Part shown: positions 1,938-63,800 of the stretch, one piece after another
Layout: each line of letters begins with the position of its first letter
Numbering within the stretch: position 1 is the stretch's first letter
DNA from: Scenedesmus sp. PABB004
Lineage: Eukaryota
NCBI GenBank assembly: GCA_014905635.1
Contig: JABVCE010000031.1
Span: 62,001 to 126,000 of the forward strand
DNA: 64,000 nucleotides
Reading direction: 5' to 3'
Notes under the pieces: generated by a model
Told to the model about the DNA's origin: nothing
The model's database searches: none
Seen by the model: the letters and a program-made list of their open reading frames with translations, nothing else
Position numbers and translations under genes: made by a program

Positions 1938-3773
1938 TCAGCTCGTGGTGCTGCCGGCGGCGCTCGAGGGCGCCGCGTCGTCGTCGGCGCGCTTGACCGT
2001 GATCTTGCGCCCCTCCACCAGGCTGCAGTGCAGCGCCTTGATCGCGCCGTCGACCACCTGGCCGTCGGCAAACTCGCAAAAGCCGTAGCCCTGTGCACGC
2101 ACGCACCCGGCGGCGCGGGCGGGGGCGGGGCGGGGCGGAGTGGGCGGGCGGGCGCGCGGCGCGCGGCGGCTGCGTGGGCGCCCGCAGCCGCGCCCGCGCG
2201 GCGCGCGCCGCTGCCGCGCCGCCGGCGCGCGCTGAGTTGGGCCCATGGCGCGCGGCGCGGGGGCGGCCCTGCCGCCCCCAAAACAACAGCGCACCTTGCT
2301 TTTCTGGCTCATCTTGTCCACGATGACCACGCAGTCCTTCAGCTCCCCAAACGGCGTCAGCATGCCCTGCAGCTGCGCGGGGTGATTGGCGGCGCGGCGC
2401 GCGGGCGCGGGCGCGGCGCGGGCGGGTGAGGCGGCCGGCCGCGGCGCGCGCGGGCGCTGCGAGGCGGCCGGCCGGCCGCGCGCGCGCCGCGCGCCCTGCG
2501 GCGCGCGCACGTGCTGCGTGCGCCAGTTGTAGGGCAGGCCGCTGATGTAGAGGCGGTTGGGGTTGGCGGGCTTGCGCGGCGGCGCGTCGCCGTTGGCGGC
2601 CGACACGGGCGTGCCGTCGCCGCTGCCCGAGGTGTGTATGCTCAGCATGCTCGTGTTGATTGTGGGGTCGGGGTGCGTCGGCCCGAGCAGCACGCCCCAG
2701 TCCGGGTGGTACTTGCTCGGCCGGCTCACCTGGCGGGCAGCGGGAGGCGAGACGCGCGGGCACGTGAGGCGTGAGGTGAGCCGCTGCCGCGCTGCGCGGT
2801 GCGCGCCGCTGCTGCCGCGCGGTGCGCGCCGCTGCCGCGCGGTGCGCGCCGCCGCTGCCGCTGCTGCCGCTGCTGCCGCTGCTGCCGCTGCCGTGCTGGG
2901 CGCCGCTGCCGCGCGCGCCTTGAGCGTCGAGCCGCGGAACTGGATGCCGCTGAAGGCGAGCGCGTTGCTCGTCTCCTGCACGCTGCGCATCTTGATGAAG
3001 GCGTACGGCGGGCCCTTGTCGCGCGTGATGCTGCAGCGGCGGCAGCAGCGGCGGCGCGGGAGGGTCGGCGGCGGCGCGCGCGTGCGCGCCCGGGCGCCGA
3101 GGGCGCGCCGCGGGCGCGGCGGCGCCGCGGACCTGCAGTTGACGACGCTCGTGCCGGTGTCCTGCTGCGCGCCGCTGCAGGTCATGAGGGCGTTGAAGAA
3201 GGAGCAGAGGTCGTCCTGCGAGGGCGGGAGAGCGGGAGCAGCGGCGGCGCGCGCCGCGGTCGGCGCGGGCGGCGGCCGGCCGGCCGGCGCGGCGGCGCGC
3301 GGCGGCGCCCGCGAGGAGCGCCAGGGCGCGGGCGCGCTGCTCCGGGAGGCCAGCGGGCTCGTCTGGCGGGCGGCCATGTGCGCGGCCGTTTCGCACGTGG
3401 CCCGGAAAAGCCCTCGCCCGCATCCGCAGCCGCTGCGCTGCCGGCCGGGGGCGGCCCGAGGGCCCCCGGGTGCGCTGCCGGCGCGCCGCGGGCCGGGGCG
3501 CCCCGGGCGCGCCGGGGGGCGTCTGCTGCTGCCCGGCGGGCAGCCCCGCCCCCGCCGCGCGGCCCCCACCTCGGTGGTGCCCTCCGGCACGCCGCCGACG
3601 TAGAGCTCCCGCGCCACGACCAGGGCGTGGGGGTCGTTGGCGCGCGCGCGCTGCTGCAGCTGCTGCATCCAGGCCCGCAGGTGCGCCAGCTGCGCCCTGA
3701 GCTGCTGGTTCTCCGCGTCCTTGACCGCCAGCTGCTCCTGCAGCTGCGCCACCGCCTGGACCGGCGCCTCCAT
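1938..3773 (-). CDS. U2AF large subunit (U2AF65)-like protein: N-terminal coiled coil plus two RRMs, 6 exons
   Basis: Spliced: ELYVGGVPEGTTE|DDLCSFFNALM..YAFIKMRSVQETSNALAFSGIQFRGSTLK|VSRPSKY (RRM1-like) and RLYISGLPYNW..KSK|GYGFCEFADGQVVDGAIKALH..RKITVKRA (RRM2-like). One GC donor at 2918. Confidence 0.8.
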   Translation of the reverse strand: MEAPVQAVAQLQEQLAVKDAENQQLRAQLAHLRAWMQQLQQRARANDPHALVVARELYVGGVPEGTTEVGAARRGRGCPPGSSRRPPARPGRPGPRRAGSAPGGPRAAPGRQRSGCGCGRGLFRATCETAAHMAARQTSPLASRSSAPAPWRSSRAPPRAAAPAGRPPPAPTAARAAAAPALPPSQDDLCSFFNALMTCSGAQQDTGTSVVNCRSAAPPRPRRALGARARTRAPPPTLPRRRCCRRCSITRDKGPPYAFIKMRSVQETSNALAFSGIQFRGSTLKARAAAAPSTAAAAAAAAAAAAAAARTARQRRAPRGSSGAHRAARQRLTSRLTCPRVSPPAARQVSRPSKYHPDWGVLLGPTHPDPTINTSMLSIHTSGSGDGTPVSAANGDAPPRKPANPNRLYISGLPYNWRTQHVRAPQGARRARGRPAASQRPRAPRPAASPARAAPAPARRAANHPAQLQGMLTPFGELKDCVVIVDKMSQKSKVRCCFGGGRAAPAPRAMGPTQRAPAARQRRAPRGRGCGRPRSRRAPRARPPTPPRPAPARAAGCVRAQGYGFCEFADGQVVDGAIKALHCSLVEGRKITVKRADDDAAPSSAAGSTTS

Positions 3774-4419: not shown

Positions 4420-5203
4420 TCACACGCCCGGCGCGCCGCCGGCGCCGCGCTCGCCGCGCTCGGCGACGAGGAACGGGTGCGCCCGCATCGCGGCCGCGGT
4501 CGGGCGCTTGGCGGGGTTGTGCGCCAGCATCGCCTCCAGCAGGTCCGCCAGCGCCGCCGCCTGGCGCGCGCGGGGGCGCGGCCGCGCTGAGCGAGCCAAG
4601 CGCACAGCGCGGGCGCGCGGGGCGCGCCGCGCAGCCGCACCTCGGCGTCGGGCGCTCCGCCGGCGGCCGCCCCGTGGCAGATGAAGTCGCGCAGCGCCGT
4701 GTACTTGAGGTTTAGCGCGTTTGTGACGCGCAGCGTGTCGTTGGGCGTGAAGTACTGGTCAAACGCGGGCGAGCGCCGCACAAACTGCGCGGCGGTGCGG
4801 CGCGCGGGGCGGGGCGGGGCGGGGCGAGAGAGCGGGCGGGGCGGGTCGTCAGCGGGGGCGGCGGCGGCCGGCGGCAGCGGCGGCAGCGGCAGCGGCGGCG
4901 GAGCGGCGGCAGCGGCCGGCGGCCTGTGGCGGCGGCAGCGGCGGCGGCAGCGGCCGGCGGCCGGCCGGCGCGCACCTCGCGGTCCCACGCGCCGATGCTG
5001 GCCTGGAGGTGCAGCAGGTGCAGCGCGTCGTCGCTGTGCCGCGAGCTAAGCTGGATCTTGGCACGCATCGCCGCGAGGTCGGCCGGCGGCACGAGCGGCC
5101 GGCCCAGCGCGAGCTCGCACAGCAGCGCGCCGAGGCGCCACACGTCGTACGGCGGCGCCGCATAGTCCAGGCCCAGCACCTCCTGCGCGCGGCGCGAGAC
5201 GCG

Positions 5204-5234
<31 letters not shown>

Positions 5235-7270
5235 GGCCTCGGCGCGCGTGCCGCCGCCCGGCCCTGAGGGCCCCCGCCCGTGCGCCCGCGCGCCACGGCG
5301 CGCCCCACGGCGCGCCACGCCGCGCCCCCGCATGCGCGGCGCGCCTCTGGCGGGCGCAGCCAGGGCGGCGACATGACGATCGGGCCGTCGGCGTTGAAGG
5401 CCAGACCCTCGGCGCTCACGCCGCCGCCGCCGCCGCCCACGGGGCGCGCCGGGTGCGCGCGGCCAAAGTCTGTGAGCTTGACCGCCGCGCCCTGCAGCGC
5501 GCGCTCGTTGTAGGTGTCGCCCGCCGGCGCGGTCGCGAGCGCGTCGACGCGCTCCGCGAGGCTCGCCATCGCGCGCTCGTCGTGCAGCACGATCGCGCGG
5601 AACGCCTGCGCGCAGCGCGCCGCCGCGGTCAGCCAGCCGTTGCCCCACAGCTCGCGCGCGACGTCCTGCGCCGCGGGCGGCGGGCGGCGGGCGGCGGGCA
5701 CGCGCGCGTGGGCCCCTCGAGTGAGCCACAAACAAAACCATCAGTGTTTCGTTGCTTCAAAGCCCTTGCGGCGGCCTCACGTCTTTGAAGGAGACAAAGG
5801 GCTTGTCAATGAGCATGTTGTCAAGGCTGAGGTCCATGTGCACCAGGCCGCGCCTGGCCGTGGCCATGTAATGAAGATGGGGGCGTGCGGCGGCGCGGCG
5901 CCGCGGTCAGTGGGCGCGAGCGCGCGGTGGCGCGGCCGCGGCGCGGCGCGGCGCCGCGGCGGCGGCTCACGCGTGCAGGTGCTCCAGCCCCGCCAGGCCC
6001 TGCCGCGCGATGCTGCGCAGCGCGGCGCGGCCCTCGTCGCTGCCGAGCAGCGGCACGATGCCGATGCGGCCCTGCGGGTCCTGCGCCACCGTCCCCAGCG
6101 GCCGCCACTCGGCGGCGACCTGCGCGCGGGCGGCGCGCGCGGGCGGGCGGCGCGTGGGCGGGCGGCGGCGTGGCACGCGCAGCGCCCCAGCCCCGGCCGG
6201 CGGCCGCAGCGGCGCACCACGGCGAGGGAGCTGCCCATGCGCTCGAGCACCATGCACGCGTGGCGCCCGGCGGGGCTGCGGTGCTCAAACGCGTCCAGCA
6301 GCGCGACGACGTTGGGGTGGCGCCCCGCGAGCGCGTGCAGCGCCGCCTCGCGCGTGCCGGCGGTGTAGCTCACGGCGTCGCCCGCCTCCATCAGCTGCGG
6401 CGCGCGCGGGCGTTGCATCATCAGCGGCGGCGCCGCGGCCGCTGCCGGCGCTGGCGCCTGCCCCATGCCCCCTCCCCTGACCCTGCGCTCCTCGGCGGGG
6501 TCGCCGGCCCCTCCCCGCCGGGCCGCCGGCCCCCCCAGCCCGGCCGCCAAGCCGCGCTGCGCCGCTGCGCCGCACCTTGAGCACCACGTCTGCGCCGCTG
6601 GAGAGGTCCTGGCCGCGCCACATCGTGGTGAAGCGCCCCTCGCCGACGCCCTCGGCCGGCCCGAGCGCGCCCTCGCCGAGCTTGGCGACCAGCTTGTAGC
6701 GCCCCCGCCGAGCACGTCGCCGGCCTTGAACACGTCCGGCACGGTCGCCGCGGCCGCCGCCGAGAGCAGCTGCGCCTCGGTCAGCGGGGGCGGCTGCTGC
6801 GCCGCGTCGCCGGCGCCCGCGCCCGCGCCGCCCTTGCCCCCGGCGGCGGCGCCCGACTGCCAGCGCAGCTGGCCGACCACGGTGCCGTTCCCGGTGACGC
6901 TGGCGAAGGGCAGCCGCGGCCCGCGGCCGCGCCAGCCGCCGGCGCCGCTGCTGCCGCTGCTGCCGCCGCTGCTGCTGCAGCCGCGCGAGGAGAGGCGCCG
7001 CTGCTCCAGCGAGAAGGAGAGGCTGTCGGCGCCCAAGCCCTCCGCTGCGCTCCCGCTCGGGCTCGCGCCAGCGGCCCGCCAGAAGCCCGCGGGCATCGCC
7101 GCCGCGCCCGACAGCCGCGCCCGCTGGCTGCTGCCGGCCATGGCACCACCCAGGGCGCTGCTCACGCTCTCTAGATCACGGGACGAGCTCACGCCGCTGC
7201 GAGGAGGCCTGCCGCCGGCCGCGCGCGCCAGCCGTCGCAGCGCGGACGCCGCCGCTGCCGCAGCCCGCAT
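4420..7270 (-). CDS. CMGC/SRPK-like Ser/Thr protein kinase, multi-exon, apparent 1-nt frameshift near 6702-6706
   Basis: GDVLGG/RYKLVAKLGEG, VVLK, HPNVVALLDAFEH..HACMVLERMG, HMDLSLDN, VKLTDFG, WLRPPE|EVLG (GC donor 5344), YDVWRLG, ALADLLEAMLAHNPAKRPTA. The start codon is uncertain. Confidence 0.75.
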
Positions 7271-7447: not shown

Positions 7448-7767
7448 TCATGCCTTGCCGCCGCTCCCGGCCTCCGCCGGCTGCAGCAGGCAGCCCTGCC
7501 AGCTGCCGTAGAGCTCGGGCCCGCTAAGCTGCACCGACGCCAGCAGCATCTCGCCGCGCGACATCAGCGGCGCGTGCAGGTTGCCGCCCGGGCCGCCGTC
7601 GTCGCCGCCGCCGCGGTCGGCCTCATCCGCCTCCCCCTCCTCCTCGCCGTCGTCGTGGTCGTCGCCCCACGCCTGCGCGTCACCGAGCCACGGCTGCGGC
7701 TCGTCGCCGTAAAACACGTCGCCGGGAGCCGCGAGCCCTTCGCCAGCCCAGCCCGCGCCGCCCGGGC

Positions 7768-7823
<56 letters not shown>

Positions 7824-11191: not shown

Positions 11192-14100
11192 ATGGGCAAC
11201 GTGGTGTGCTGCGCCTGCGTGGAACAGGGCGAGGTGGGGGCCGCCGCGCCGGCGTGGGGCGGGCGCTGGCGCTGGCGCCGGCCGCGCACGCTGCCGCACA
11301 CGCCGCCGCGCGGCGCCGCGCAGGTCGGCGCGATCGAGCGCTGCGGCAAGTTCTCGCGCCTCGCGGTGCGCGCCGCGCCGCACGCTCCCCCGCGCCCCCT
11401 GGCCTCGCCCGCGCACGCCGCCGCCGCCGCCCGCACGCCCCGCTTCTCCCCTGCCCCCTTCCTCTGGCCCCGCTCAACCCCTAAAACCCCGCCTCCTCCC
11501 CCTCCTCCTATACCCCGCCTCCTCCCCCTCCACGCAGGAGCCCGGCATCAACCTGCTCAACCCCTTCTGCTGCGAGGAGGTGGCCGTCAAGCTCTCCAAG
11601 CGCGTGCAGCAGGCGCGCACGCGCCCGGCGCGCCGCGGTCTTCGCACCTGCGCCCGCGCCCGCGCCCGCGGCGCCGAGCCGCGCGCGCCGAGCCGCGCGC
11701 CGCGCGCGCCGCCCGCGCGCCGCCCCCGACGCCCCCGACGCCCTCCGTGCACCCCTGCCGCCCCGCGCGCCCCCGCCGCCGCCGCCCCGCGCCCCCCGCC
11801 GTGCGCCGCGCGCGCCCCCGCCGCGCAGCTGGACGTCGCGGTGGAGACCAAGACGCGCGACAACGTGTTTGTCACGCTCGTGGTGTCGGTGCAGTTCCAG
11901 GCGCGGCGCGCGCAGCCACCCGCCCCCGCGCCCGCACGCCGCTGCGCGCCGCTGCGCGGCAACGGGGGCGCGCCGCACGCCGCCCGCGGCGACGCACGCC
12001 GCCCGCGGCGACGCACGCCGCGGCGACGCACACCCCGGCGGGGATCGGCGGCGCGCCGCCACCTGCGGTGGCGCCGCACGCCGCGCGCCGCGCGCCGCGC
12101 GCCGCGCGCCGCGCGCCGCCCGCGGCGACGCACGCCGCGGCCGCCGCGCGCCGCCCGGCCGCAGGTGGTGCCCGAGTCGCTGTACGACGCCTTTTACCGG
12201 GTGCGTGCGTGTGCGTGTGTGTGTGTGGGGGGGGGGGCTCGTCGGGAGGGTGCCCCGAGCGCCGCGCCCCGCCCGCCGCCTGGCAGCCCGCCCCCGGGGG
12301 CGCTGCTGGCGCGCGCGCGCGCTGCCGCGCCCGCGGCCCCCGTCACGCCGCTCACCGCCTGCACCCCCCACTAAACCCCTGGTCTGCTGCTGAACCCCTG
12401 CTGCTGCCCTCACCCCCCCCCCCACACACACACACACACGCACACCTCCACGCAGCTGACCGACTACCGCACCCAGATCCGGTCGTACGTGTTTGACGTC
12501 GTGCGCGCGACGGTGCCCAAGATCAACCTCGACGACGTCTTCGTGGTGCGGCTGCGGTTGCTGTTGTGATCGTTATTGTTATTGCTGTTGTTATTGTGTG
12601 GGGTTGTGTGTGTGGGGGGGGCTGCGGGCGTGTGGGCGTGCGGGCGGGCCGGGTGTTGCTGAGCGTCCCACCGCCCCGCTGCACGCTCCCCCTGCCCCCT
12701 CACTCACCCCCCCCCCCCCCGCCCGCCCCCTCAGACCAAGGAGGAGATCGCCAACGACGTGCGCGAGGAGCTCGGCAAGGCGCGCGCAGACCCCCCCGGC
12801 CCGCACGGCACCGCGCGCGCGCGCGCGCACGGGGGCGCGGGGCGGCGCGGCGCGGCGCGGCGGCGCCCACGCGCCTGCGCGCGCGCCCACCCATGCCCCC
12901 CTCCCGCATCCACTGCGCGCAGGAGATGAGCACGTTTGGCTTCACCATACTGCAGGTGGGGACGGGCGCGGACCGGCGCGGCGCGGGCGGCGCGGCGCGG
13001 ACCGGCCCAGCACTCCCACGCGCACACACACCCATCCCCCCAACAACACCCCGCAGGCGCTGGTGACGGACATTGACCCCGCGCCGCGCGTGAAGGACGC
13101 GATGAACGCCATAGAGGAGGCGCGCCGCATGAAGTGAGAGGGGGGGGGGGGGGTGTGGGAGGGCTGGGGCGTGGGGCGCGCACGCTGTGCTCACGGCCGC
13201 CCCGCACGGCCGTGCGCGCCCGTGCGCCCCCCGCGCACCGCGCACCGTGCGCAGGCAGGCGGCGGCGGAGCGCGCGGAGGGTGACAAGGTCACGCGCGTC
13301 AAGGCGGCAGAGGCGGAGGCCGAGGCGCGCTACCTGCAGGCGCGTGCACACGTGGGGGAGGGGGGGGGGAAGGGGAGGGGAGCGGGCCTGCGGCTGCGCG
13401 GCCCGCGGGGCCCGCGGGGCCCCGCCGCTCCAGCGCCGGCGCCCGCGCGCTGACCCCCGCCTTGCGCTGCGCCGCCCCGTGCCGCGCGCCGCCGCGTGCG
13501 CAGGGCCTGGGCATCAGCCGCCAGCGCGCGGCGATCCTCAACGGCCTGCGCGACAGCGTGGCAGACTTCTCGGGTGCGCGACACGCGGGGGTTTTAAGGG
13601 GGGGGCACGCGCCGCTGCGCCGCCGCGCGTCGCGCCCGCGCCTGCTCACGGCGTGCGCCCCCCACCCCCCTCTCCTCTGTCGTGCGCAGGCGACCTGGAG
13701 GGGGTGTCCAACAAGGAGGTGCGGGGCGGCGCGTGAGGGGCAGAGGGGGCGGTCGGCCGGCTCGCCGCGCCGCGCCGCGCCGCGCCGCGCCGCGCCGCGC
13801 CGCGCGCGTTCAGCGCCAGCCCGCGCGCTCAGCCCGCCGCCGCCGCCGCTGCGGCGCGCCGCAGATCATGGAGCTGCTGCTGCTCACACAGTGTGCGTGT
13901 GCTGCACGACGGCTGCGCCGCTGCACGCCGCCCGCTGCGCGCCGCCCGCTGCGCTCCCTCGCCCGCACACCTCCCCCACCTCTCTCTCCTCACCCACGCA
14001 CACCCCCCCCCCCCACCCCCCCCCCCCCACACACACACACACGCGCGCGCGAAGATTTTGACGCGGTGAAGGACGTCGGCCAGTCGGCCAAGGGCGCGAC

Positions 14101-14615: not shown

Positions 14616-15385
14616 TCAGAGCGTGCAGGTGAGGCCGGGGCCGGCGCCGTTGTAGAACTGGCCCGCCCACTCGTGGCCCTCGGCGTCGGTGAAGGTCCCC
14701 GCGCCGTGCATGACGCCGCCCGCCCACTCGCCCTGCGCGCGCGCGCGCGCGGGCCGGCGGGCGGCGGGAGGCACGGTCAGCGAGACTCTCGCGCTCTCGC
14801 GCGGCGCCTCGCGCCGCGCCGCCCGCGGGTGAGCTCGCTACGGCGCCGGCGCCGGCGTACACAGCACGCGCCGCCGCCGCCGCGCCGCGCCTGGTAGGCC
14901 CGGCCGTCCGGCCACGCGTACCGCCCCACGCCGCTGTAGGCGTTGTGCGACCAGCCGCCCTCATAGGCCGCGCCGTTTGCAAAGCTGAAGCAACCCTGGC
15001 CGTGCATCTCGTCGTCAACCCACTGCCCCGTGTAGGTGTACGCGCCGCACGCCAGCGTGCCTGGCGTGGCGCAGCGCGCGGCGCGCGGCGTGGCGCCGGG
15101 CGTGCAAGCGCCGCGCGCGCGCGCGCGCGCGGGCGCGCGCGCACCGACGCCGTGGCGCACGGGGCGCGGCGGCTCCGCCGGCGCGGCCGTCTCGTCGTCG
15201 CCGGCGCGCCTCTTCGCGGCCGCCGCGCCGCCCTTCTTGCCCGCCGGCGGCTCCGGCGGCGGCCCGCCCAGCAGGCGGTACTCGCCCTCGTAGGTGCTGC
15301 CGTCGGGGTAGTGGAAGCGGCCGCGCAGCAGCGGCGGCGCCGCCGGCTCGGGCGCGGCCGCGGCGCCCGGCTGCTGCTCCGGCAT
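14616..15385 (-). CDS. MORN-repeat protein, 3 exons
   Basis: YPDGSTYEGEY, YTGQWVDDEMHGQG, YEGGWSHNAYSGVG, DGRAYQ|GEWAGGVMHGAG. GC donor at 14890. Confidence 0.85.
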
Positions 15386-18184: not shown

Positions 18185-18803
18185 GGGGGAGGTGAGCAGG
18201 TGCGGCGGCGAGTGGGCAGCAAGCAACAACAAACGCGCAGACCCCTGGCACGGGCAGCTGCAGCTGCAGTCGGGCGCCGCCCCTGGGCAGCAGCGTCCCA
18301 GGGTTTAGGCAGGCGGGCAGGCGGGCACAAAACCGCGCGCGCACGCGGTACTTGAAGAGCAGGAAGAGCACAAACGTCATGCCCGCGATCACGGCCATGA
18401 ACACCACCGCGTTGAGCAGCGCGCCGCCGAGCTTGGTGCCCGCGCTGTCGCTGTCCTGCGAGCGGCACGCGGCGCGGCGCCGGCGGCGCGTGGCGGGTCG
18501 CCGGCGCGGCTGGCCGCGCGCTGCCCGCCGCGGCGCGTGGCGGCGCGCTGCGCAGCGGGGGGCGCGGCGCGGCGGTTGGAGGGCCCCCCGTCCTGCGGGC
18601 GCGCGCGCCTTTTCGTGGTAGGCAATCGTCGCGATCGCCACGCTGCTGCTGTCGGCGGCGCCGTCGGGGTTGAGCGTCTTGACCAGCACGACGACGAGGG
18701 CCATGCAGATGCTCACCGGCGCCACGATGCCCGTGACCTCGGCGCCCAGGTCGTCCAGCACGCTGGGCGCCGCCGCCGGCTCGCCGCCGCGCGGGCGCGC
18801 CAT
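15869..18803 (-). CDS. PSEN: Presenilin (gamma-secretase catalytic subunit); two apparent 1-nt deletions in the loop exon (near 17087 and 17008)
   Basis: [38 protein letters not shown] (YD), [25 protein letters not shown] (GxGD), [10 protein letters not shown] (PAL). GC donor at 18608. Confidence 0.93.
16085..16174. repeat. (TG)n microsatellite in presenilin intron
   Basis: Direct inspection. Confidence 0.9.
18012..18182. repeat. Compound (TG)n-(CG)n-(TG)n alternating purine-pyrimidine tract in presenilin intron
   Basis: Direct inspection. Confidence 0.9.
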
Positions 18804-25682: not shown

Positions 25683-26864
<1,182 letters not shown>

Positions 26865-27263: not shown

Positions 27264-38827
<11,564 letters not shown>

Positions 38828-42541: not shown

Positions 42542-43883
42542 TCAGTTGTTGCCCTGGATCTCCTGCAGCAGGCGCAGCAGGTAGAGGAACAGGTTGACCA
42601 CGTCCTGCGAGCAGCGGGGGCCGAGCAGCAGGGGCAGCGGGGCTGCGCATGAGCGCGGGCGAGCGCCCGCGGCCGAGCGCGCCGCCGCGTGCCCCGTCGG
42701 CGGCGCCCCCGTCGCGCCCGCCCCGGCGCCGTCCGCCCACAGGCCCCGGCCCCAGCCCCAGCCCCCAGGTGCGGCGGCTCGAGCTCACGAGGTAGATGTT
42801 GATGGCCGCCATCACGTACTCGTCGGGAGAGATCGCCGCGCTGCCGGAGCCCATCATCAGCTGTGCGCGGCGGCCGCGGCCCGGCGGCGGCGGCGGCGGC
42901 GGGGGTGAGGCGCGGGGCCCAGCCCCGCCCCGCCCCGCCCCGCGCGGCGGGCGGCGTCTGCCCCGGCTGCGGCTGCGGCGGCGGCGCGCCTGGACGTCAA
43001 AGACGATATAGACCGCAAACACCGCGGCGCCGGCGGCCGCGACCGCGATGCTGAGCGTGCGGGAGGGCATGAGCATGGACAGCAGCCCCGCGCCCAGCAG
43101 CGTGAGCAGGAGGGAGAACATGATGCCGCCCGACGCGGTGAAGTCGCGCCGCGTGGTCATCGCGTACGCGCTCAGGCAGCACGTCACGCCCGCGGTCAGC
43201 CTGCGGCGCGGCGGACCGGGCCGCGGCTGACGCCCCCGCCAGGGCGCCGGCGGCAGCGCACAAGCAACGGCCGCCGTCGGCGGCGGCGCGCGCTCCTCCG
43301 CGGCGTCGCCGCCGCGCGCGCGGCGTCTCTCACCCCGCGGCCATGAGCACGACGTCTGTGTCGTACATGGAGCTGATGGTCGCGACGAGCACGCCCTCGC
43401 ACGCGGTGAATGCAAAGAGGGCGACCAGGTTCCACGGGTGCGCGCGCCGCGCCGCCTCGACGCAGCTCAGCACGCCCACGAGCACCAGCGACGCGGCGAA
43501 GGCCACCCAGAACGTCCTGGCGGCCGGCGCGGCGCGGGCGCGGCCGCGTCAGCAGAGAGCGCGTCAGCGGCGGAGCGCGCGACGCGCGCGCTGGCTGCGC
43601 GGCGCGCGCGGCGGCGAGTCAGGCCAACCGGGCGGCGGCGGCGTGGCGTCAGTCAGGCGCACCAGGGGTTGTGGTACACAAAGCCCTTGAGGCCGGGGTT
43701 CAAGATGACGCCCGCGGTCATGGCGGCGGTGATGGCGAGCTGCACGCTGAGCAGGCCGAAGACCTTTCGCACAAACCCGAGGCGCACCTCGCGCTCCGCA
43801 AACTCGAGCGAGGGGCCGCTCTTGTCGAAGAGGGAGCCCATGAGCCCCGACTCCTCGTCGGCGGGGGCGTAGGCGTACGCCAT
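42542..43883 (-). CDS. Bax inhibitor-1 / lifeguard (TMBIM) family protein, 5 exons
   Basis: VRLGFVRKVFGLLSVQLAIT, HPWNLVALFAFT, RRDFT, YIVFDVQ|LMMG (GC donor 42989), SPDEYVMAAINIYL|DVVNLFLYLL. Confidence 0.93.
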
Positions 43884-46075: not shown

Positions 46076-47733
46076 ATGTCGGACGGCGCGCTGCAGCAGC
46101 TGCGGGAGGACGCGCTGACCATGCTGGTGCTGTGGGCCACCACGCAGGAGTACAGCGCGGTGCGATCCGCGCCCGCCGTGCCGCGCGCTGCCCAACCGCG
46201 TGTGCGCGCGCGCCCCCACAGGCACCCGCGCCGCGGCGCCCACGCCGCGCCCGTGCCCGCGCCCGCGCGTGCTTGCAGGACATTGAGGCGCTGCTGAAGC
46301 AGTGGGCCGGGACGTTTGAGATCCCCGACGATGACCTCATGGCCCGCCTCACAGCGGCGACCGGCGGCGCGCTGCACCGCCCGCCCGACAGGTGACTGCG
46401 CCGCGCGCGCGTGAATGCGCGCGCGCGTGTGCATATGTGCGTGTGTGCGTGTGTGAGAGGGACAGCGTGAGAGAAGGGGCTGGCATGCGCACGCGTCGCC
46501 CGACCGGCCGCCGCCGCCGCCGCCGCCGCCGCAGCCGCACGGGGCTGGGGCACTCGCTGGAGCTGCAGGCCGTCACGCCGACGGCGGGCGCCGGCGGCGG
46601 GGGGCCGTTTGCGCCCAGCGGCAGCAAGCGGCCGCTGGACGGCGGCGGCGGCGGCGGCGGGGGCGGCAAGCGCACCAAGGTGCGGCCCTGAGCGCCGCGC
46701 GCCGCTGCGCCCGGCGGGGACAGCGCTCGGCGCCGACCCGCCGACCCGCCGCGCCGCGCAGACCATGCCGGTGCTGGCCGACGGCGACCTGCCGTTTGCA
46801 AACATCGGCCCCGCGCTCGGACACAAGGTGCGCGCGACCCGGGGCGCGCGCCCTGCCGCGCCGCTCCTGCGCACCCCTCGGCCACCTCCTCCCCCACACG
46901 CGCCCTCCTCCACGCGCCCTCCCGCACGCGCCCACGCTCGCGCCCACGCACACGCCCACACACCCGCCCCCGGCCGCCGCCGCCGCCGCCGTTTCACCAC
47001 CGTGCGCCCGCCAGGTGCTGCGCTACTGGCCGAAGGACGCCGCGCGCAACAAGGGCGACCCCTGGTTCACCGCTGTCGTCACCGACTATGACGAGGCGAC
47101 CGGCGTGCACATCCTGACGTACCAGTTTGGCACGCAGCGCGAGGAGAAGGAGCGCGTGAGCCTCGGGCACAAGACGCACGACGAGCTCAAGGCGAGCCTC
47201 GGGCAGGGGCAGGAGGGGCGCGTGCTCCCTCTCCCTCCTCTCTGCCTGCCCCCTCTCCCGTCCCTCTCTCCCGCACCCACCCACGCCCACACCCGCCCTC
47301 TCACCGCCGTCCACGCCCGCGCCCCGTCCCCCCCACCACAAACACACACACGCACGCACACACCCGCACAGTTTACGGGCGAGAGCGTCGACCTGCTCGA
47401 CTGGTTCAGCGACCCCAAGAAGCGCCGGCGCTCGAGCGCGGTCGAGAAGAGCACCTACCTGCGCCGCCAGTACCAGGTGCGCGTGTGGGGGCGGTGCGTT
47501 TGGGGCGGCGAGGGCTGCAAGAGCCTGCGGCTGGCTGGCTGGCGCGTGCGTTGACCGGCCGCGCGTAGACCTGACCGGCCGCAGCGTTGACCGACACCGC
47601 GCGCCCGCCGCCGCCGCCGCCGGGCCGCAAGGCGATCCACGGCGCGACGCTGCCGCCGGGCATGCCGCGCCCCAAGAGCGGCAAGGGCAAGGCGCACTCA
47701 AACTCGGCGCTCAGCTCGGGCTATTCGTTGTAG
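46076..47733 (+). CDS. EMSY-like chromatin reader (ENT-like N-terminus plus plant Tudor/Agenet-like domain)
   Basis: LQQLREDA..IEALLKQW..FEIPDD and LGHK|VLRYWP..WFTAVVTDYDEATGVHILTYQFGT. GC donor at 47192. The last exon needs a 1-nt correction near 47452. Confidence 0.55.
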
Positions 47734-51422: not shown

Positions 51423-51472
<50 letters not shown>

Positions 51473-54400
51473 CGGCCGACGTGCGGGGTGAGATGAGCGG
51501 CGTGGGCGCGGCGCTGCCGCTCGCGCTGCTGCTGCCGCCGGCCGCGCTGCCCGCGGCGCTGCCGAGCAGCAGCCCCGCAGTGAGGTCGGCGTCGCCGCTG
51601 CCGGCGCGCGCCGGCGGCGGCACCGGCGGCAGCGCCGCCGCGGGCGGCTTGGGCGCGCTCGGGCCGGGGAGGTCGTCCTCCTGCAGCTGCAGCAGGTCAG
51701 CGATGGCCGGCCCCGCCGCGGCCGCGGCCGCGGCCGCGCCGCCCGCGACGTCGCTGCGGCTGTGCTGGTGGTGCCGCGCGCCGCCGGCGCCGCCGCCGCC
51801 GCGCGCCGCCGCCGCCGCCGCCAGCAGGTCGCCCTCTGACGCGTTGCGCTGCCCGCGCGGCGGCGCCGCGGGCGCGGCGTTGGGCCCGGGCGCCGCGTTG
51901 GGCCCGCCGAGCTTGAGCAGCGCCTTGAGCGTCGTGACGATCGCCCCGAAGTTCGGCCGCGCCGCGTAGTCCTGCGCCCAGCACTGGGCCATGAGCTGAG
52001 TGTAGCCCGCGACCGCGGCCGCGGGGCCGAGCTGCCCCGGCAGCGACGACAGCGGCGGCAGGCCCGGCCGCGCGCCCTGCTGCTGCACCGCGATCATGAT
52101 CTGAAAGGACCCCAGGCCCTCCGCCTCCCACGGCTCCTCCCAGCACCTGGGGCGGGAAGGTGGGCGGGCGGGAAGGTGGGCGGGCGGGCGGGCGGGAAGG
52201 TGGGCGGGCGGGCGGGAAGGCGAGTGGGGTGGGCGGGCGGCGGCGAGGCATGTGGGGCGCGCGCCGCGGCGCGGCGGGGCGGCGGCGCTCACAGGAGCTC
52301 CCACAGCACGATGCCCATCGCATACACGTCGGCTGGCAAAGAGGGGGCGAGGGGGGTGCGGGCGCGGCGGCGGCGTCATCGCGGCCGGCGCGGCAGGCGG
52401 CGCGCGCGACGCGGGGCGCGGCGGCAGGCCTTGGCAGCAGCAAAAGGCTGCGGGGCGCGCAGGCGGCTGCGGCCACCTGCGGTGCTGTAGTAGCCCTCCC
52501 CGATGACCTCGGGCGCCTGCCAGCGCGGGTTGAGCTCGAGGCTGCTCTTGACGAACGAGGCGCCGAGGGTCATGTAGCGGCTGCGCGGCGCGGCGGCGCG
52601 GGGGCGGGGCGACGGGGTTTAGGGTTAAGGAGGAGCCGGGGCGGCGGAGCAGGGTCGAGGGCGGCGGCGCGGGGCCGAGCAACGGCGGGGCGCGGGCAGG
52701 GGCAGGCGGCGCGTGGCGGGCGGGGGGGGGGGGGGTTGTCGCGCCTGAGGTTGAAGTCCCCGACCTTGACGTGCAGCGCGTTGGTCACAAACAGGTTGGG
52801 GCTCTGCGGGCGGTTGGGTGTGTGTGTGTGGGTGGGTGGGTGTGTGGGTGGATGGGTGGGTGGGTGTGCGTGCGTGTGTGATTAGGTGTGGGTGTGAATG
52901 TGTTTGGGGGAGGGGGGCACGTCGTGGGGGTGGCGGCGCCCTGGACTCGAGGGCCACGGCAGCGGGGACGGCAGCCCCGCCCCGTCGGGACGCCGGCCGG
53001 CCGGGTTTCGGGGTTCAGGGCCTAAAACCTAACCCCTAAACCCTAAACCCCGTGCCTTGAGGTCGCGGTGCAGGATGGTGGGCTTGTGGGAGTGCAGGTA
53101 GAGCAGACCGCGTGCAGCGTCCAGCGCCATCAGCAGCCGCCGCGTCCACGTGAGCCGCGCCGCCATGGCCGGGTCGCTGCGCGCCTGCGCGGCGGGGCGG
53201 GGCGGGCGCGTGTGCGTCAGCACGTGTGTGTGTGCTTTCAGCGGGCCGTCACATCTCGTGAGCGCGGCGCCGGCTGGGGGGCCCGCAGCACGCCCGCACG
53301 CGGCTCCACACACGCAAAGCAAAAGCAAACGCAAAAGCGAGCGAGGCCGGGCCTTCTCTTTTCTTTCTCTTTCTCTTTCTCGCCATCTCTCGCGCCGCCA
53401 TCTCTCTCACCTTTTTGAGGACGTCGTAGAGTGAGCCGAGGGGGCAGAACTCGGTCACGATCGCGGGCGGGGCGAGGCAGACGCCCATGAACAACACCAC
53501 GTTGGGGTGGCGCAGCGTCGCCTGGCGCCCGGCGGCGGCGGCGGCGGCGGCGGCGCGGTGTCGAGTGCGCGCGGGTGCGGGCAGGCGCGCGGTTTTGAGA
53601 GCGACAGCGTGTGAGCGCGTGCGTGGCTGCACGAGGGGAGGGGAGGGACGGGGCCAGGGGGCGGCAGGCGGACGGGCGCGCCGCGGGCGTGTCCCAGCCT
53701 CCGCCGAAGCCCCATTCCTGGCGCACGCGCGCCCGCGGCGCACCAGGATGCCGACCTCCTGCCGCAGCGCGCGCAGGCGCGCCTCGTCCCACGACGGGCA
53801 GTCGGCCGGCGCCGCGCCGCCGGGGCGGTCGGCGGCGGGCAGGTCGGTCAGGATTTTCACCGCGACGTCGGTCTGGTTGAAGCAGCCTGGCCGGCGGGCG
53901 GGCGGGAGCGTGCGCGGGTGGGGTGTGAGCGTTTGTAAGGGTGTGAGAGGGAGCCGAGGAGGAGGGGGAGCAGGGGAGGAGGAGGCACTGGGGGTGGGGC
54001 AGGACCCGGCGCGCCGCCGCGCACGCGCGGCCGCGCGGCACCGCACCGATCTCGACGCGCCCGTAGCTGCCGGTGCCGATGACGCGGCGGTGCGCCGGGT
54101 CCTGCGCCACCCCCAGCGCCTCCCACTCGAGCATCCAGCTGCTGCCCTGCAGGTCGCGCCCCCAGCGCGCGCTGCTGCTGTTGCGCACGAGGCCGTCGGC
54201 GCCGCCCGCGCCGCCGCCGCCCGCGCCGGCGCCGGCCGGCGCCGGCTGCGGCTCGGCCGCCGCCGGCTGCGGCTCGGCCGCGCCCCGCTGCTCCTGCTGC
54301 TGCTGCTTCTGCTGCTTCTGCTGCTGCTGCTCGGGCGGCGTCGGCGCGCCCTCCTCCACGACCGCCAGCGCGGCTGCCGCGTCGGCGGCGTCCGTCTGCC

Positions 54401-57400
54401 GCGTCGCCGTCTGCGCGCGCGCCGCGGCGAACTGCAGCGCCTGCGGCGCGCCGCCGCTGCCGCCCAGCGCAGCGCCGTTGGGCACGGCGCCGTCGCTGCG
54501 CTGGCGCAGGTGGTGCGAGCCCGCGCCTGTGCCCGCCGCCGCGCTGGCCGTGGGCGAGAGCAGCAGGCTGCTGACGTTGCTGCCGCTGCCCGCGCTGACG
54601 CTGGTCGACGCCGACAGCCCCAGCACCGCCGCCGCCGCCTCGCTCACGGGGTTGCGGCTGTGCGGCAGCGCCAGCCCTGCGCGGCGCCGGCGGCGGCGGC
54701 GGCGCACGTCAGCTCGCTCCACGCCTGCGCTCCGCCAGCCTCCACCCCTCCCCCGCTCGCCGCGCGCGGCGCGGGCACCCGCCCACCCGCCCGCCCGCCC
54801 GCCAAAACCCGCCCGCCACCGCCCGCCGGGGCGCGCCGCCGCGGCACGCACCCGCCTCGGCCGCGCGCACGCGCAGCGTCGTTTCGGGCCACATCTTGAT
54901 GCTGCCGGTCTTGCCTGACGACACCAGCAGGTGCCCCGCGCCCACGAGGTGTGTGAGCCCCAGGCGGTGCACCTGCGCGGGCCGCAGCCGCGGCGGGGCG
55001 CGCGTGCGTGGGCGCGCGGGCCAGGGGGCGGCGGCGGTGCCTGCGCGCGCCGCCGCGAGGCTGAGGCGCCGCGCCGCGCCTGCAGCGTGACCGTGGCGGG
55101 GTTCCAGCGCGACACGTTGGCGTCGTCACGCGGCGCGAGGCGCGTCTTGGGGTCGAGCTTGCGCAGATAGACCTGGCGGCGGCGGCGCGACACGGCGCCC
55201 GACGGGCGAGGGTTCAGCTCGGGGGCAACGGCCGACGCCGCGGCGGCCGCGGGCCGCCCAGGCACGCCGGCCGGCTGCCCGCAGCGGCGCTCGCGCACCT
55301 TGCCGTCGGCGTGCGCCGCTGAGAGCAGGCCGAGGTCGTCCAGCACCACAACCGCGCGCACGGGGCTGCGGCTGCCGCCGCGCTCGGGGCGACGAGCAGC
55401 ACCGGCTTCAGGCTGTCGCCGGCAGTGTCCCACATCACGAGCCCGCCGTTGGCGTGCCCCGTCACGAGGTGCCGCTCGCCGCTGCCGCCGCCGGGCGGCG
55501 CGCGCGGCGTGCCGGCGCTGCCGCTGCCCGCGCTGCCCGGCAGCGAGCCGCCGCTCGCGAGCAGGCCGCCGCTGCCGGCGCGGCGCGCGGCGGGCGGGGC
55601 CGCCCAGTGGACCATGGCCATCGCCGTGGCGGGCGACCTGCGGCGGCGGCGAGCGCGCGGCGGGGGGTCGGCCGCTGCGCGCGAGCCCCGCGACACGCGG
55701 GCACCAGGCGCAGCAGCCGCACGTGGCGCCGCACCTGCACCAGCGCGTGCTGCGCTTGCTGATGCTGCGCAGCAGCTCGAAGCGCGCCGCGTCCCAGACG
55801 AGCAGCGCGGCCGACGCGGCGCTCGCGCCGCCGGCGGTGTAGGCGCGGCCTGCAGAGATCAGGATGCCGCGCACCGGCCCCGCGTGCACCGCCGTGGCCT
55901 TGAGCCGCCCCGCGCTCCCCCCCGACTGCGCGCCGAGGCACGACTCCAGCAGCTCCAGCCCGCTCGCGGCGGCGTGGTGGCCGCTGCCGCCAGACGGCCG
56001 CGACCCGCTCCTGCGCGGCGGCGCGCGGCGGCGGCAGCATGCGAGGGCGTGAGCGGGTGCGGCGTGCGAGGGTGCGGTGCCGCGCCGGGCCGCGCGGCCG
56101 GCGGGCGCGGCGCGGCCGCTGGCTGGCGGCCGGCGCGGGCCGCGCACCTCGCGACTCGCCCGGCGTGCCGCTGCTGCGGCTTGCTGCAGGGGTGCGTTCG
56201 CGCGCTGCCGCAGGCGCTGCCCGGTGGCGCGGCGCCGGCCCACGCGCCGCCGCTGCCGGCGCTGCCCGCCGCGGCTCCCGCGATGGGCGCGGCGCTCGCG
56301 GAGCTGCCGCCGCTGTCAATGGAGCGCGTGGTGGGGCTGTGTGCGTCGTAGCCCAGCAGCTGCCGCACCGGCTCCAGCTTGCCGGGGCCGGGCAGCGAAT
56401 AACCCTGGTTGAAGCTGCGCGCGGCGCGGGCGGCGGCGCGGCCGGGAGGGTGAGGCCCGGGGTGCGGCGCGCGGCGGCCGCGGCGGGGCCGGCGCCCGCG
56501 GCGGCAGCGGCGGGCCCGGCGCCGGCGCGCTGCCACGCACCGCACGACCGCCACCTCGCCGTCCGCGGTGCCGGCCCAGCAGTAGCCAGAGTCGGGGTCG
56601 ACGGCGAGCGCCGTCACCGCCGCGGCGCCGAGGCGCACGGGGCTGCCGCCTGCTGCGGCGCCCTCCATGCTCCAGATGCGCACGGTGCCGTCAGCGTGGC
56701 CCGACCAGAGGAAGCCTGGCGGCGGCGCGGCGCGGGTTAAGTGCGGCGCGGGCGCGGTCAGCGGCCGCGCCGGCGAGGGCGCAGCCGCGCGCGCGAGGCC
56801 GGGGCCCGCGGGCCTCCCCGCGCGCACCCGACTTGTCGTGTGCCATGCACAGCAGCGCCTCGCCCGCGCCCTCGAGCACCGTCGTCACCTGCGCGCGGCG
56901 CGCGGGCGCTCGCACGCTACACACCCCGCCCGCGGCCTCTGCGCGCCCCGCGCGCGCGCGCGCGCGGCCGCCGTGCTGCCGCCGCCGTCCCGCCGTTAAC
57001 CTGGCTGGCGAGGTGCACGATCTTGATGTTTCGGTGCGCCGCCCACGCGACGACGCCGTCGTGCCCCTCGCCCTCGTCGTCGGGGAACGCAAGCAGCGCC
57101 GCAACCTTGTGCTTTGACGCGAGCCGCAGGCTGTGCCTGCGCGGCGGCGGTGGCGGCGCGGGGGCCACCGGCGCCCAGGGCGGGCGGGCGGGCGGGCGGT
57201 GGCGCGTGGGCGCGCGGCAGCGTGGGCGGCGCGCACGCGCTCGCATGACCATGGCGGCGGCCGCGGCGGCGGCCGCGGCGCGCACCGGGCAAACGCGTTG
57301 CCGCTCGCGACGCTGCTGCTGCCGGACGGCCCCGCCTGCGTGACCTCGCGCTTGATGCGGTTCTGGGGGTCGATCAGGTCCCACGTCTGCAATCGCGCGG

Positions 57401-59203: not shown

Positions 59204-59245
59204 AACGGCGACGCAATGAAATCAACGGAGCGCGCAGCCTCGCCG

Positions 59246-60854: not shown

Positions 60855-63800
60855 ATGGGGAGCGCCCAGGCGCCGCTGGGCGGGCTGGCGCACCACCGCC
60901 AGCCCGCGCCGGCGCTGCGCGCGGCGGCGCCCGCAAACGTGCACGCCCGCCCCCTCCTGGGCGCCCTGGGCGGCGCCGTGGCCGGGGCCGGCCTGGCGTC
61001 GGGCCTGGAGGAGCTCAAACGCACCGCGGGTGCGCCGCGCGGGGCAGCCGCGCGGGCAGGCGCCCCCGCCGCGCGCCGCTGCTGCTGACGCCGCCCCGCC
61101 TCCCGCGCCGCGCCGCGCAGACACCTGGATGCAGGACCAGCAGAACAGCAAGCAGCGCGTCGAGTTCATGGCGCGCCGCGCGCCGCCGCGCCGCCACGCC
61201 GCAACGCCGCTGCTGCTGCGCGCGCAAGCTTACGCTGCACCGCGCCGCCGACTGACCCCGCGCCGCTGGCCCGCCGCGCAGAGCGCCAGGATCCAGGAGC
61301 TCGAGGCCGCCCGTGCGGCGCTGCTGGGGGACAACCAGGCGCTGCAGGAGGCCGTGCGCCTGCGCGACGCGCGCATACGAGAGGGTGCGCCGCCGCGCTG
61401 GGCGGGCGCGCCGCCGGCACCGCCGCCGCGCGCGCCCCGCGCCGCCGCGCGCGCCCGGCGCGCCGCGGTGCGACCCCCGCCGGCCGCTCCCGCTCCGTGC
61501 TCGCCGCGCAGACGACAAGGCGGTCGCGGCGCTGATGGACAAGCTGGCGCGCGTGGACGAGCAGCACCGCCTGCTCAGCCACAACGCCGAGCGCGCCATG
61601 CTCGAGGCCATGCGGCGTGAGCGGGGCGCGCGCGCGTGCGCGCGCGCTCGGGACACAACGAGGGTGCCGCCGCCGCTGCCGCCGCCGCCGCCGCCGTCAC
61701 GTGCGCGCGGCGCCGTCCTGCAAGGGCCCGCGCCCGCACCGCCCACCGCCGCCGCCGCCGCCGCCGCTGCGCGCGCAGTCGAGGGCTGCAGGCAGGGCAT
61801 GCAGGACGCGCTGGACGCCCAGGGGCTCATGTGCACGGTGAGGGCCAGCGCTCGCGCGCGCGCCGCCCGCACGCCGGGCCGGGGCTGCTTGCAGGAACGG
61901 CGCCGCGCGACCACGCCGCCGCCGCGCGAGCGCGCCGTCGCCGCCCCGGGTGCGAGCACCCGCTTGCAGGACGTCGAGACCAAGTTCAGCGCCCTGCAGG
62001 GCGCGCTCGCGGTTGCGCGGAGGGACCTGGACGCCGGTGCGCCGCCGCGCTCGCGCCCACGCTCCCGCGATCGCGCGCGCCGCGGGGGCCAGGGGGCGCG
62101 CGTGGACGCGGCGCGCGCCCTGCAAGCCCCCTCCCCCCAAACCGATCGAGCTGCGTGCGCCGCCGCCGCCCTGCAGGTGCCGCGCGCACCGCGCGCCTGG
62201 AGCTGGAGCTGGACAACGCGAGCGGCCGCGCGGCGGCCAAGGAGCGGGAGCTGGCCGAGGCGCTGTGCCTGAGCGTGAGCGCGCGCGCCGGCGCCCGGCT
62301 CGGGCCCGGCCGCGCCGCGCCGCGCCGCGCCGCGCCGCGCCGCGCCGCGCCGCGCCGCCCACTACGTGCACCCCCCCCCCCACACACACACACCCACAAA
62401 CACACGCACGCGCAGGCGCTGCTGAAGAGCAGCAGCGAGGGCACCATCGCCGCCCTGTCGGCGCAGCTCGCCACCGCGACCGCGGCGCGCGACGCCGCGG
62501 ACAAGGCGCTGGCCGAGCAGGCGGCCGCGCACGAGGCGCAGCTCAGCGCGGCGCGCGACGCGCACGCTGCCGCGCTCGACGACCAGCGGCTGCAGATCGG
62601 CGCCGCGCGCGGCCAGCTGCGGGACGCGGCCGCCCGCGAGGAGGCGCTGAGCGCTGAGCTGGGCGACGCGCGCGCGGCGGCCGCGCGCGGCGCGGCCGCC
62701 ATTGCCAGCCTGGAGGCGCAGGTCGCAGGTGCGCGGGAGGGGGCTGTGAGCCCTGTGCCCTGTGCCCTGCGAGCGCGCCGCGCGCGCCTCCCACACGCCG
62801 CTTGTCGTGCGCGTGCCTCCCGCGCCGCAGGCCTCACCGCCGCGCGCGACGTGGCCGCCGCCGCGCTGGCCACCAGCGAGGCGCGCGTGGCTGAGGCAGC
62901 CGCGTCGCTCGACGCCGCGGCCGCGCGCGCGGCCGGCCTGGAGGAGCTGCTCGCGGCGGCCAAGCAGGGCTGGGAGGCGGCCGAGGCCGCCGCGGCCGAG
63001 GCCAAGGCCGCGCAGCAGGCGGCCGAAGCGTGCGACGTGGGTGCCGCTGCCGCCGCGCTGCCGGCCGGCGCGGCTGTTGTCTGAGCCGCCGGCGCCGCCG
63101 CGCTGCTGCCGCCGCGTGCAGGGCAAGGCGGGCGAGGAGGCGGCCGCCCTGCGGGGGCAGCTGTGCACGCTGACGGACGCGCACGCGCGGCTGGCGGACG
63201 AGCTGCAGGCCAAGGAGGTGCGGCGGGCCCCCTGGCGCGCAGCTAGCTGCGCGGCCGCGCGCTGCGCTGGGTGCCGCGCCGGCGGCAGCTCGGACGACGC
63301 GCGCGCGGCCGCGCGCGCCGCGCCGCGCCCCGCAGGCGGCGCTCGCGGCCGCGCAGGACAGCGCCGGCGCGCAGGCGTCCGCGCAGGCCGAGGCGGCGGC
63401 GCTGCGGGGAGAGCTGGCCAGGGAGCGGGCCATGAACCGCAAGGCCACCGAGAGCGCCGCCAAGGTGCGTGCGTGCGCGCGCGCTCGCGCTCGCGTGGCG
63501 GTGGGCGCGGCGGCGGGCCCGGCGCTGAGCCCCGCCGACCGTGCCGCCGCCGCGGCGCGCAGCGCATGGATGAGATGATGGCGCAGGCGCGCAGGGCCCA
63601 GGCGGTGCGTGCGCGTTTGTGTGTTGTTTATGGGGGCTGAGCGCGCGCTGGTGCTGGGCCGCTGTGCCGCGGCGTGCTGGCGGCCGCGGCGCAGCGCGGC
63701 GCCGGCGCGGCGCGGGGGCTGCCTCCAGGTGCGCCGACCCGCCGGCTGCGCCGCCCGCAGCTGGAGAAGGAGCTCGCGGCCGCCCAGGAGCGGCTCGCGG

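Follow-up and report, generated by a model that had tools for sequence, protein, structure and literature searches.

The 64,000-nucleotide (nt) stretch of Scenedesmus sp. PABB004 analysed here (contig JABVCE010000031.1, positions 62,001 to 126,000 of the forward strand; hereafter "the window", with positions counted from its first letter) contained genes in which a large share of the predicted introns begin with GC instead of GT. Comparison of the genomic sequence with homologous proteins and protein profiles, together with an ab initio parse, confirmed that such GC-AG introns exist, that they account for about one in six of the introns predicted in the window, and that they occur in a sequence context unlike that of the GT introns. 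An original prediction, made from the DNA letters without database searches, had listed about 22 GC donors among roughly 120-130 introns. All 22 listed donors carried GC as the first two intron bases on the proposed strand, and an ab initio parse independently placed an intron at each of them; the present count was 22 GC introns among 135 (113 GT), or 16%. GC-AG introns typically make up about 1-2% of introns (Frey and Pucker, 2020; PMC7072748), and if 2% were expected, the probability of finding 22 among 135 would be 5e-14 (binomial).

The window had a G+C content of 79% throughout, and its genes were eukaryotic and intron-rich, with an intron density of about 2 per kb. The assembly from which it derives (GCA_014905635.1) is listed with 39.8 Mb, 78.5% G+C and 7,092 genes (PMC12571836), and the genome paper of the strain is that of Calixto Mancipe et al. 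(2022; cited in PMC13248705). A stop-to-stop open reading frame (ORF) at 34413-37604 matched PRP16/DHX38-type helicases in a homolog search, and the best matches came from chlorophycean green algae (Tetradesmus, Scenedesmus, Astrephomene, and Chlamydomonas). The ORF at 11403-12371 matched four band-7/HIR proteins, the best of which was HIR3 of Scenedesmus sp. PABB004 itself, with a local match that was 100% identical. Given this match and the HIR3 model described below, the window was regarded as nuclear DNA belonging to PABB004 or to a strain almost identical to it. The genes in which several junctions were followed, together with a gene for a U2AF65-like protein, and the 22 GC-AG introns, each referred to below by its donor position, are as follows.

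27264-38422, plus strand: PRP16/DHX38 helicase gene, identified by homologs
11192-14350, plus strand: HIR3 (band 7) gene, 15 exons and 14 introns (4 GC, 10 GT)
50235-58405, minus strand: WD40/TKL kinase gene
1938-3773, minus strand: U2AF65-like RRM protein gene
2730..2918, minus strand: GC-AG intron of the U2AF65-like RRM gene; 189 nt, phase 0
5183..5344, minus strand: GC-AG intron of a divergent protein kinase gene; 162 nt, phase 0, from the parse
11613..11828, plus strand: GC-AG intron of HIR3; deposited protein, and three orthologs with the best GT 81 units worse
11901..12164, plus strand: GC-AG intron of HIR3; deposited protein, and three orthologs with the best GT 95 units worse
12780..12922, plus strand: GC-AG intron of HIR3; three orthologs, with the best GT 124 below the top candidate and the GC donor 6 below it
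13340..13503, plus strand: GC-AG intron of HIR3; required for the model to equal deposited P0026, acceptor outside the reach of the ortholog refinement
14733..14890, minus strand: GC-AG intron of a MORN-repeat gene; 158 nt, phase 0, ab initio
18456..18608, minus strand: GC-AG intron of a presenilin gene; first of 80 in-frame GT/GC-AG candidates under a presenilin hidden Markov model (HMM)
25035..25220, plus strand: GC-AG intron of a hypoxanthine phosphoribosyltransferase (HPRT) gene; phase 2, parse and PDB
26097..26263, minus strand: GC-AG intron of a serotonin N-acetyltransferase-like (GNAT) gene; PDB alignments
29336..29562, plus strand: GC-AG intron of PRP16; five homologs, best GT-AG 104 units worse
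31153..31320, plus strand: GC-AG intron of PRP16; eight homologs, best GT-AG 616 units worse
33155..33517, plus strand: GC-AG intron of PRP16; eight homologs, GC-AG at -4 and best GT-AG at -94
33698..33906, plus strand: GC-AG intron of PRP16; seven homologs, best GT-AG 126 units worse
34691..35153, plus strand: GC-AG intron of PRP16; eight homologs, search range without any GT-AG candidate
35316..35524, plus strand: GC-AG intron of PRP16; eight homologs, best GT-AG 96 units worse
42861..42989, minus strand: GC-AG intron of a Bax-inhibitor-1 gene; 129 nt, in frame, no stop
47192..47371, plus strand: GC-AG intron of a gene of unknown family; donor GCGAG, ab initio only
52581..52744, minus strand: GC-AG intron in the kinase domain of the WD40/TKL kinase gene; phase 2, ab initio
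52804..53055, minus strand: GC-AG intron in the catalytic loop of the WD40/TKL kinase gene; donor GCACG, splits HRDLK/SPN
54973..55079, minus strand: GC-AG intron of the WD40/TKL kinase gene, in its WD40 part; one ortholog (P0030), GC-AG among the best junctions, best GT-AG 23 units worse
61171..61281, plus strand: GC-AG intron of a coiled-coil gene; ATG/GC, without exonic AG, ab initio only

The original prediction held that continuity of the encoded proteins requires the GC donors, and this was borne out at 12 of the 22 sites by junction scoring against homologs or an HMM. Every in-frame donor/acceptor pair between neighbouring tblastn segments was enumerated regardless of its dinucleotides, and the joined peptide was scored against the homologs in summed BLOSUM units. 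In PRP16, 22 junctions were scored against up to eight homologs, which yielded 6 GC-AG, 14 GT-AG, and 2 ambiguous junctions; the best GT-AG solution at the GC sites cost 90 to 616 units, or was lacking within the search range. The largest of these costs belonged to donor 31153, which indeed lies within the GKTTQ/MTQ motif, as had been proposed. The spliced HIR3 model was identical to the deposited PABB004 HIR3 protein P0026 over 296 of 296 amino acids, which implies that the annotators' model already uses four GC-AG introns. The presenilin junction was scored with an HMM built from homologs; tblastn with presenilin homologs did not detect the first exon. The 18608/18456 pair reached 135.5 bits, compared with 110.1 bits for the best GT alternative and 119.4 bits for retention, and the Pfam profile ran continuously across the junction, while the other four junctions of this gene were GT. 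In the WD40/kinase gene, for which one homolog was found, five junctions were GT and 55079 was GC. With that single homolog, a further GC donor in this gene, at 55383, stayed at the level of a candidate.

Six further GC sites were supported by the boundaries of Pfam or PDB alignments. The alignment of the U2AF65-like product to U2AF65 in the PDB ran to the last exon residues (..STLK) before donor 2918 and then stopped, the Pfam RRM_1 profile ended at the exon end, and the read-through had a non-coding composition. At 5344, an alignment to DYRK2, although weak, started at the start of the downstream exon. Two of the motifs named in the original prediction fell into this group. The PDB alignments of HPRT ended at ..FNERFR, precisely at donor 25035, and at the HRDLK/SPN motif (53055) the upstream match to Pfam PK_Tyr_Ser-Thr reached profile position 128, one residue before the exon end, whereas the downstream exon aligned to PLK3 from the residues after HRDLK (E = 0.12); an in-frame stop occurred at codon 8 of the read-through. 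At 26263, the exon end ..LCEK and the next exon, VGWP, aligned to the consecutive residues LCDK and VGWP of rice SNAT1 (7dai_A). For the Bax-inhibitor-1 gene, the unspliced ORF spanned 137 residues for 93 positions of the Pfam Bax1-I profile, and the 44 surplus residues coincided with the 129-nt stretch that begins at 42989, the read-through of which was non-coding (GC2, the G+C content of second codon positions, 0.98).

The remaining four sites (14890, 47192, 52744, and 61171) were placed by the ab initio parse. MORN profile matches were found in both exons that flank 14890, and its read-through contained an in-frame stop. No in-frame GT occurred within 45 nt of 52744, and the spliced product reads DFNLS/R. 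A PDB search with the gene that contains 47192 returned no match. Donor 61171 was the sole candidate scoring above 2 in 61100-61260, and CTGAC was located 31 nt before its CGCAG acceptor; this donor is the least secure of the 22.

The parser assembled exon chains from codon log-odds together with donor and acceptor matrices, and it was trained on homology-defined PRP16 exons and introns and then for two rounds on its own predictions. When run by strand segment, it predicted 151 introns (113 GT, the 22 listed GC, and 16 extra GC candidates) and reproduced the deposited HIR3 model exactly. The 16 extra GC candidates were left out of the count, as most of them lacked the consensus and lay in low-complexity sequence. 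A whole-strand parse with greedy overlap removal was rejected as a tally; neighbouring genes were merged and the GC share drifted to 38%. The self-trained parse called 47 GC and no GG introns when T, C, or G was allowed at +2, and 31 GG introns when T or the decoy G was allowed there; ab initio counts by themselves are thus inflated. On the other hand, the read-through of all 22 listed introns scored -0.34 to -0.80 log-odds per codon, compared with +0.26 to +0.73 for exons, and its GC1/GC2/GC3 profile was flat, with no codon periodicity. The proposed check for nearby GT donors also favored the GC sites, since an in-frame GT within 45 nt was absent for 4 of the 22 and far weaker for 16. The GT alternatives near 12780 and 13340 were not clearly weaker, and the deposited HIR3 protein settles both. 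Among the extra candidates, 63587-63760 on the plus strand (CAG/GCGCGC) resembles the confirmed class and looks plausible; 17122-16945 on the minus strand (CCG/GCGCGG) precedes the presenilin variable loop; and a third came from the parse at 42320-42252 on the minus strand. The other 13 resemble parser noise.

The GC and GT donors differed mainly at the exon end. The consensus was (C/A)AG/GTGCG for the GT class and (C/A)AG/GCGCG for the GC class. As originally predicted, all but one of the GC donors (21/22) followed an exonic AG, the exception being 61171, and 19 of the 22 read AG/GCGCG, whereas GT donors tolerated other exon ends and followed an exonic AG in 49 of 113 cases (Fisher p = 3e-6). 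The homology-defined subset behaved in the same way (10/10 GC vs. 12/26 GT; p = 0.003). Expressed as the share of GC, this amounted to 21 of the 70 donors with an exonic AG and 1 of the 65 without it. Position -1 was G in all 22 GC donors and in 98 of 113 GT donors, and position -3 was C or A in 21 of the 22 GC donors. Positions +1 to +5 read GCGCG in 20 of the GC donors, the exceptions being 47192 and 53055, and GCG at +3 to +5 was thus found in 20/22 GC compared with 77/113 GT donors (p = 0.04). The heptamer AGGCGCG occurred 31 times on the sense strand of the gene models, namely at 20 donors, 10 times in exons, and once in an intron; G was present at -3 in 6 of 11 coding-sequence occurrences, compared with 1 of the 22 GC donors.

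The GC introns were nearly confined to phase 0 (20/22, compared with 62/113 GT donors; p = 0.0015), with CAG (11), AAG (7), GAG (1), or ATG (1) as the last exon codon. This restriction arises because A at -2 is readily available only in the middle of a codon, as in CAG, AAG, and GAG; in phase 1, position -2 coincides with the third base of a codon, and as this base is almost always G or C, A is scarce there (5 of 29 phase-1 GT donors followed an exonic AG). Within the context AG/G.GCG, 19 of 48 donors were GC. The PRP16 training introns contained C and T at frequencies of 0.416 and 0.126, so that composition alone would give about 77% C at +2, and T at +2 is hence still favored even in the best context. 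The two classes were alike in other respects. The acceptor was CAG in 22/22 GC and 109/113 GT introns, and the mean intron G+C was 0.836 and 0.837, respectively. Lengths divisible by three were found in 12/22 GC and 40/113 GT introns (p = 0.10), and lengths both divisible by three and stop-free in 10/22 and 28/113 (p = 0.07).

Relatives of PRP16 were recovered at 80 metagenome loci, nearly all of which were from intron-poor marine picoalgae or were transcripts; no relative of HIR3 was found in the metagenome contigs. Three distant loci (L005, L007, and L012; 42-45% G+C, about 65% identity) contained several introns. The intron position after residue 683 of P0004 was shared with the window and was GT in both. 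The comparison with lower-GC relatives that had been suggested with the original prediction yielded a single informative case: after residue 931 of P0004 (phase 0), the donor was GC in the window (34691) and GT in L007, which has 45% G+C. This shared position fits a GT-to-GC change at an old intron. The window intron after GKTTQ (31153) was offset from introns L007:5220 and L005:11702, which lie three codons later, after MTQ; all three have the same phase and follow a CAG codon, and the offset may stem from sliding of an intron or from separate gains at adjacent proto-splice sites.

Taken together, the GC-AG introns are very probably ordinary introns of the major spliceosome (U2-type) in which C has taken the place of T at position +2 of the donor. 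Pressure toward G+C, whether mutational or through conversion, is the presumed cause and would turn T to C at +2. According to a threshold model, C at +2 would survive only where the remaining 5' splice-site contacts are at full strength, chiefly where the exon ends in AG, and compensation may operate through base pairing with U1 small nuclear RNA (snRNA), as general splicing knowledge would suggest. The original prediction had proposed a compensation of this kind, and its exon-end part holds, as GC donors were much stricter than GT donors at the exon end. The donor consensus, with C at +4 and C or G at +6, would pair poorly with canonical U1. It is possible, though unlikely, that the splicing RNAs of this lineage co-evolved with its composition, so that a changed U1 5' end (or changed U6/U5 contacts) would pair with G-Y-G-C-G donors; C at +2 would then cost little given an exonic AG, and GC-AG would belong to a 5' splice-site code that has been re-tuned, rather than reflect drift that is simply tolerated. 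Both the poor fit of the consensus to canonical U1 and the 19 of 48 donors with C in the AG/G.GCG context are in line with such re-tuning. An Rfam scan of the window at gathering thresholds returned no matches, and hence no snRNA gene.

Other explanations of the GC donors fare worse or would change only their share. Misplaced boundaries, with nearby GT donors in actual use and GC as a fitting artefact, are a natural concern in stop-poor, GC-rich DNA such as the window, where GC dinucleotides outnumber GT about fourfold and reading frames stay open over long distances, and where the parser called the decoy GG introns and the untrusted extra candidates described above. This reading is refuted at the 12 scored sites, where the best GT-AG solution is worse by 23 to 616 BLOSUM units or by about 25 bits. 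The HIR3 model, which contains four GC donors, is identical to a deposited protein, and an in-frame GT within 45 nt is absent or weak for 20 of the 22; as an account of the whole set, it is very improbable. AG/GCGCG and AG/GTGCG differ by one base, and an assembly or polishing error that read T as C could in principle create the former from a true GT donor. However, random errors would be blind to context, yet the GC donors stood apart from the GT donors both in exonic AG and in phase 0, and 22 errors exactly at donor +2 within 64 kb are implausible, which leaves this explanation with almost no credit. Nor is it easy to regard the GC-AG introns as a class of their own, be it U12-type introns or the copies of an intron element that spreads. 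Two PRP16 introns do share a repeat of about 400 nt, to which the GC intron 34691 shows a weak match (68% over 343 nt). The U12-type extended donor is [AG]TATCCTT, which was found in 0 of the 22 (GCGCG in 20, GCGAG in 1, and GCACG in 1). Furthermore, the GC and GT introns were equal in mean G+C and CAG acceptor, one GC intron (34691) occupies an old intron position, and an all-against-all BLAST of 151 introns, a small sample from one window in which most matches were of low complexity, revealed no sequence family that covers the GC introns. A separate class is accordingly extremely unlikely.

A further alternative is that several of the unverified calls are in-frame coding insertions or often-retained introns, in which case the true share would be lower, perhaps 10-13%. 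The sites 47192, 61171, 5344, and 2918 were weakly or not supported by homologs, and a cross-kingdom survey reported an excess of divisible-by-three, stop-free lengths among GC-AG introns (PMC7072748). On the other hand, all 22 had negative coding log-odds and flat GC1/GC2/GC3 profiles, 4 of the 10 cases that were divisible by three and stop-free (11613, 11901, 33155, and 18608) were absent from the homologous proteins, and 42989 was an insertion relative to the Pfam profile. A lower share for this reason is therefore improbable, though it deserves more weight than misplaced boundaries.

Several points weigh against the interpretation as ordinary U2-type introns at a frequency of about one in six. 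The introns are known here only from genomic DNA and protein comparison, and 4 of the 22 come from a permissive ab initio parse alone. The denominator of 113 GT introns is likewise ab initio and includes low-complexity genes. Across the four homolog-checked genes, 12 junctions were GC-AG and 33 were GT-AG (12/45 GC, with 2 ambiguous junctions excluded), a share that is biased upwards because two of the four genes were chosen for their many claimed GC donors; two conserved genes had 36 junctions, of which 10 were GC-AG. With 12 of the 22 introns divisible by three and 10 of them stop-free, protein continuity does not strictly require removal of the unverified ones. The step of compensation through U1 goes beyond the data in that the consensus fits canonical U1 poorly at +4 and +6. 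Moreover, composition alone does not set the level of GC donors, because Emiliania huxleyi, with 65% G+C, exceeds PABB004 with 78.5% G+C.

Some of the introns contained repeats and motifs. The two PRP16 GT introns at 29724-30338 and 32472-33032 share the repeat mentioned above (29906-30284 and 32582-32976, plus strand; 80% over 403 nt, E = 7e-99), which was the only strong pair in an intron-versus-intron BLAST, and weaker matches were detected in introns 34691-35153 and 23972-24276. Possibly, this is a dispersed repeat resident in introns. The plant-type telomere heptamer occurred 14 times on the plus strand, compared with about 0.5 per orientation predicted from composition: as CCCTAAA at 11479, 24522, 31041, 31074, 31279, 31306, 32131, 33012, 34044, 53034, and 53041, and as TTTAGGG at 25672, 35628, and 52618. 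Thirteen of the 14 fell inside predicted introns. In the sense orientation, CCCTAAA was located 15-59 nt upstream of the 3' intron end; three adjacent PRP16 introns, for instance, contain ...CCCTAAACCCCGCAG. In GC intron 53055, consecutive TTTAGGG units begin 9 nt from the donor. The intronic heptamer may act as a telo-box or as an element resembling a branch site.

Two of the genes that carry GC-AG introns encode splicing factors (the U2AF65-like RRM protein and PRP16/DHX38), which is probably a coincidence. Low-complexity coding sequence (poly-Q, poly-A/G/S) at 7451-7915 and 50238-52145, both on the minus strand, produced weak, spurious "TFIIA" Pfam matches and contained most of the doubtful ab initio introns. 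PABB004's own PRP16 and WD40/kinase proteins were not returned by the ORF searches (8,000 candidates scored, within a length band); the HIR3 ORF search, by contrast, did return the strain's own protein. Together with the 7,092 listed genes, these missing returns are compatible with under-annotation of long, multi-intron genes, although they are a hint at most.

No published GC-AG frequency for PABB004 or the Sphaeropleales was found in a literature search, and the terms "GC-AG", "splice", and "intron" do not occur in PMC12571836. The introns of PABB004 are a quantitatively striking further case of a known trend, with no new mechanism. Across genomes, G+C content and splice-site G+C are correlated weakly to moderately, with r at 0.24 for fungi and somewhat higher for plants (0.40) and animals (0.43) (PMC7072748). 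As in PABB004, the U2-type GC-AG introns of animals, plants, and fungi follow the major-type consensus at the other positions, which is stronger as compensation (Kralovicova et al., 2011, PMC3167603; PMC7072748). They account for about 1% of introns (PMC7072748), whereas the level in the PABB004 window is roughly ten times higher. Unlike in the usual GC-AG introns, the compensation in PABB004 would lie in the exon (-3 to -1), as +4 to +6 read C-G-C/G in both classes. Such dependence on an exonic AG, combined with confinement to phase 0, offers a simple picture in which selection on +2 depends on the remainder of the splice site and on codon usage.

Among green algae, the GC-rich Ostreococcus lucimarinus is similar in that its donor consensus is GTGCGTG rather than GTAAG or GTRAGT; changes in snRNAs were raised as an explanation and left open (Irimia and Roy, 2008; PMC2483917). 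However, Ostreococcus is intron-poor and GC-AG introns are not mentioned in the passages available from that study, whereas PABB004 is intron-dense with one in six introns GC-AG. The closest parallel is E. huxleyi, a GC-rich alga with a large share of GC donors (56-60%) that was attributed to genome GC content, and in which the acceptors also remain AG (Feldmesser et al., 2014; PMC4028052). Ab initio annotation pipelines under-called the GC donors of that species (PMC4028052), and in PABB004, gene finders restricted to GT would likewise fail at about one intron in six of the window, so that many genes with several introns would be disrupted or missed. The two algae differ in that E. huxleyi is a haptophyte with 65% G+C and a majority of GC donors, whereas PABB004 is a chlorophycean green alga with 78.5% G+C and about 16% in the window; the available passages on E. 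huxleyi (PMC4028052) contain no statement on a requirement for exonic AG or a restriction to phase 0 such as the pattern described here. Independently of E. huxleyi, PABB004 is thus a second GC-rich algal lineage in which GC donors are numerous, with a share much below that of the haptophyte despite the higher G+C content of PABB004.

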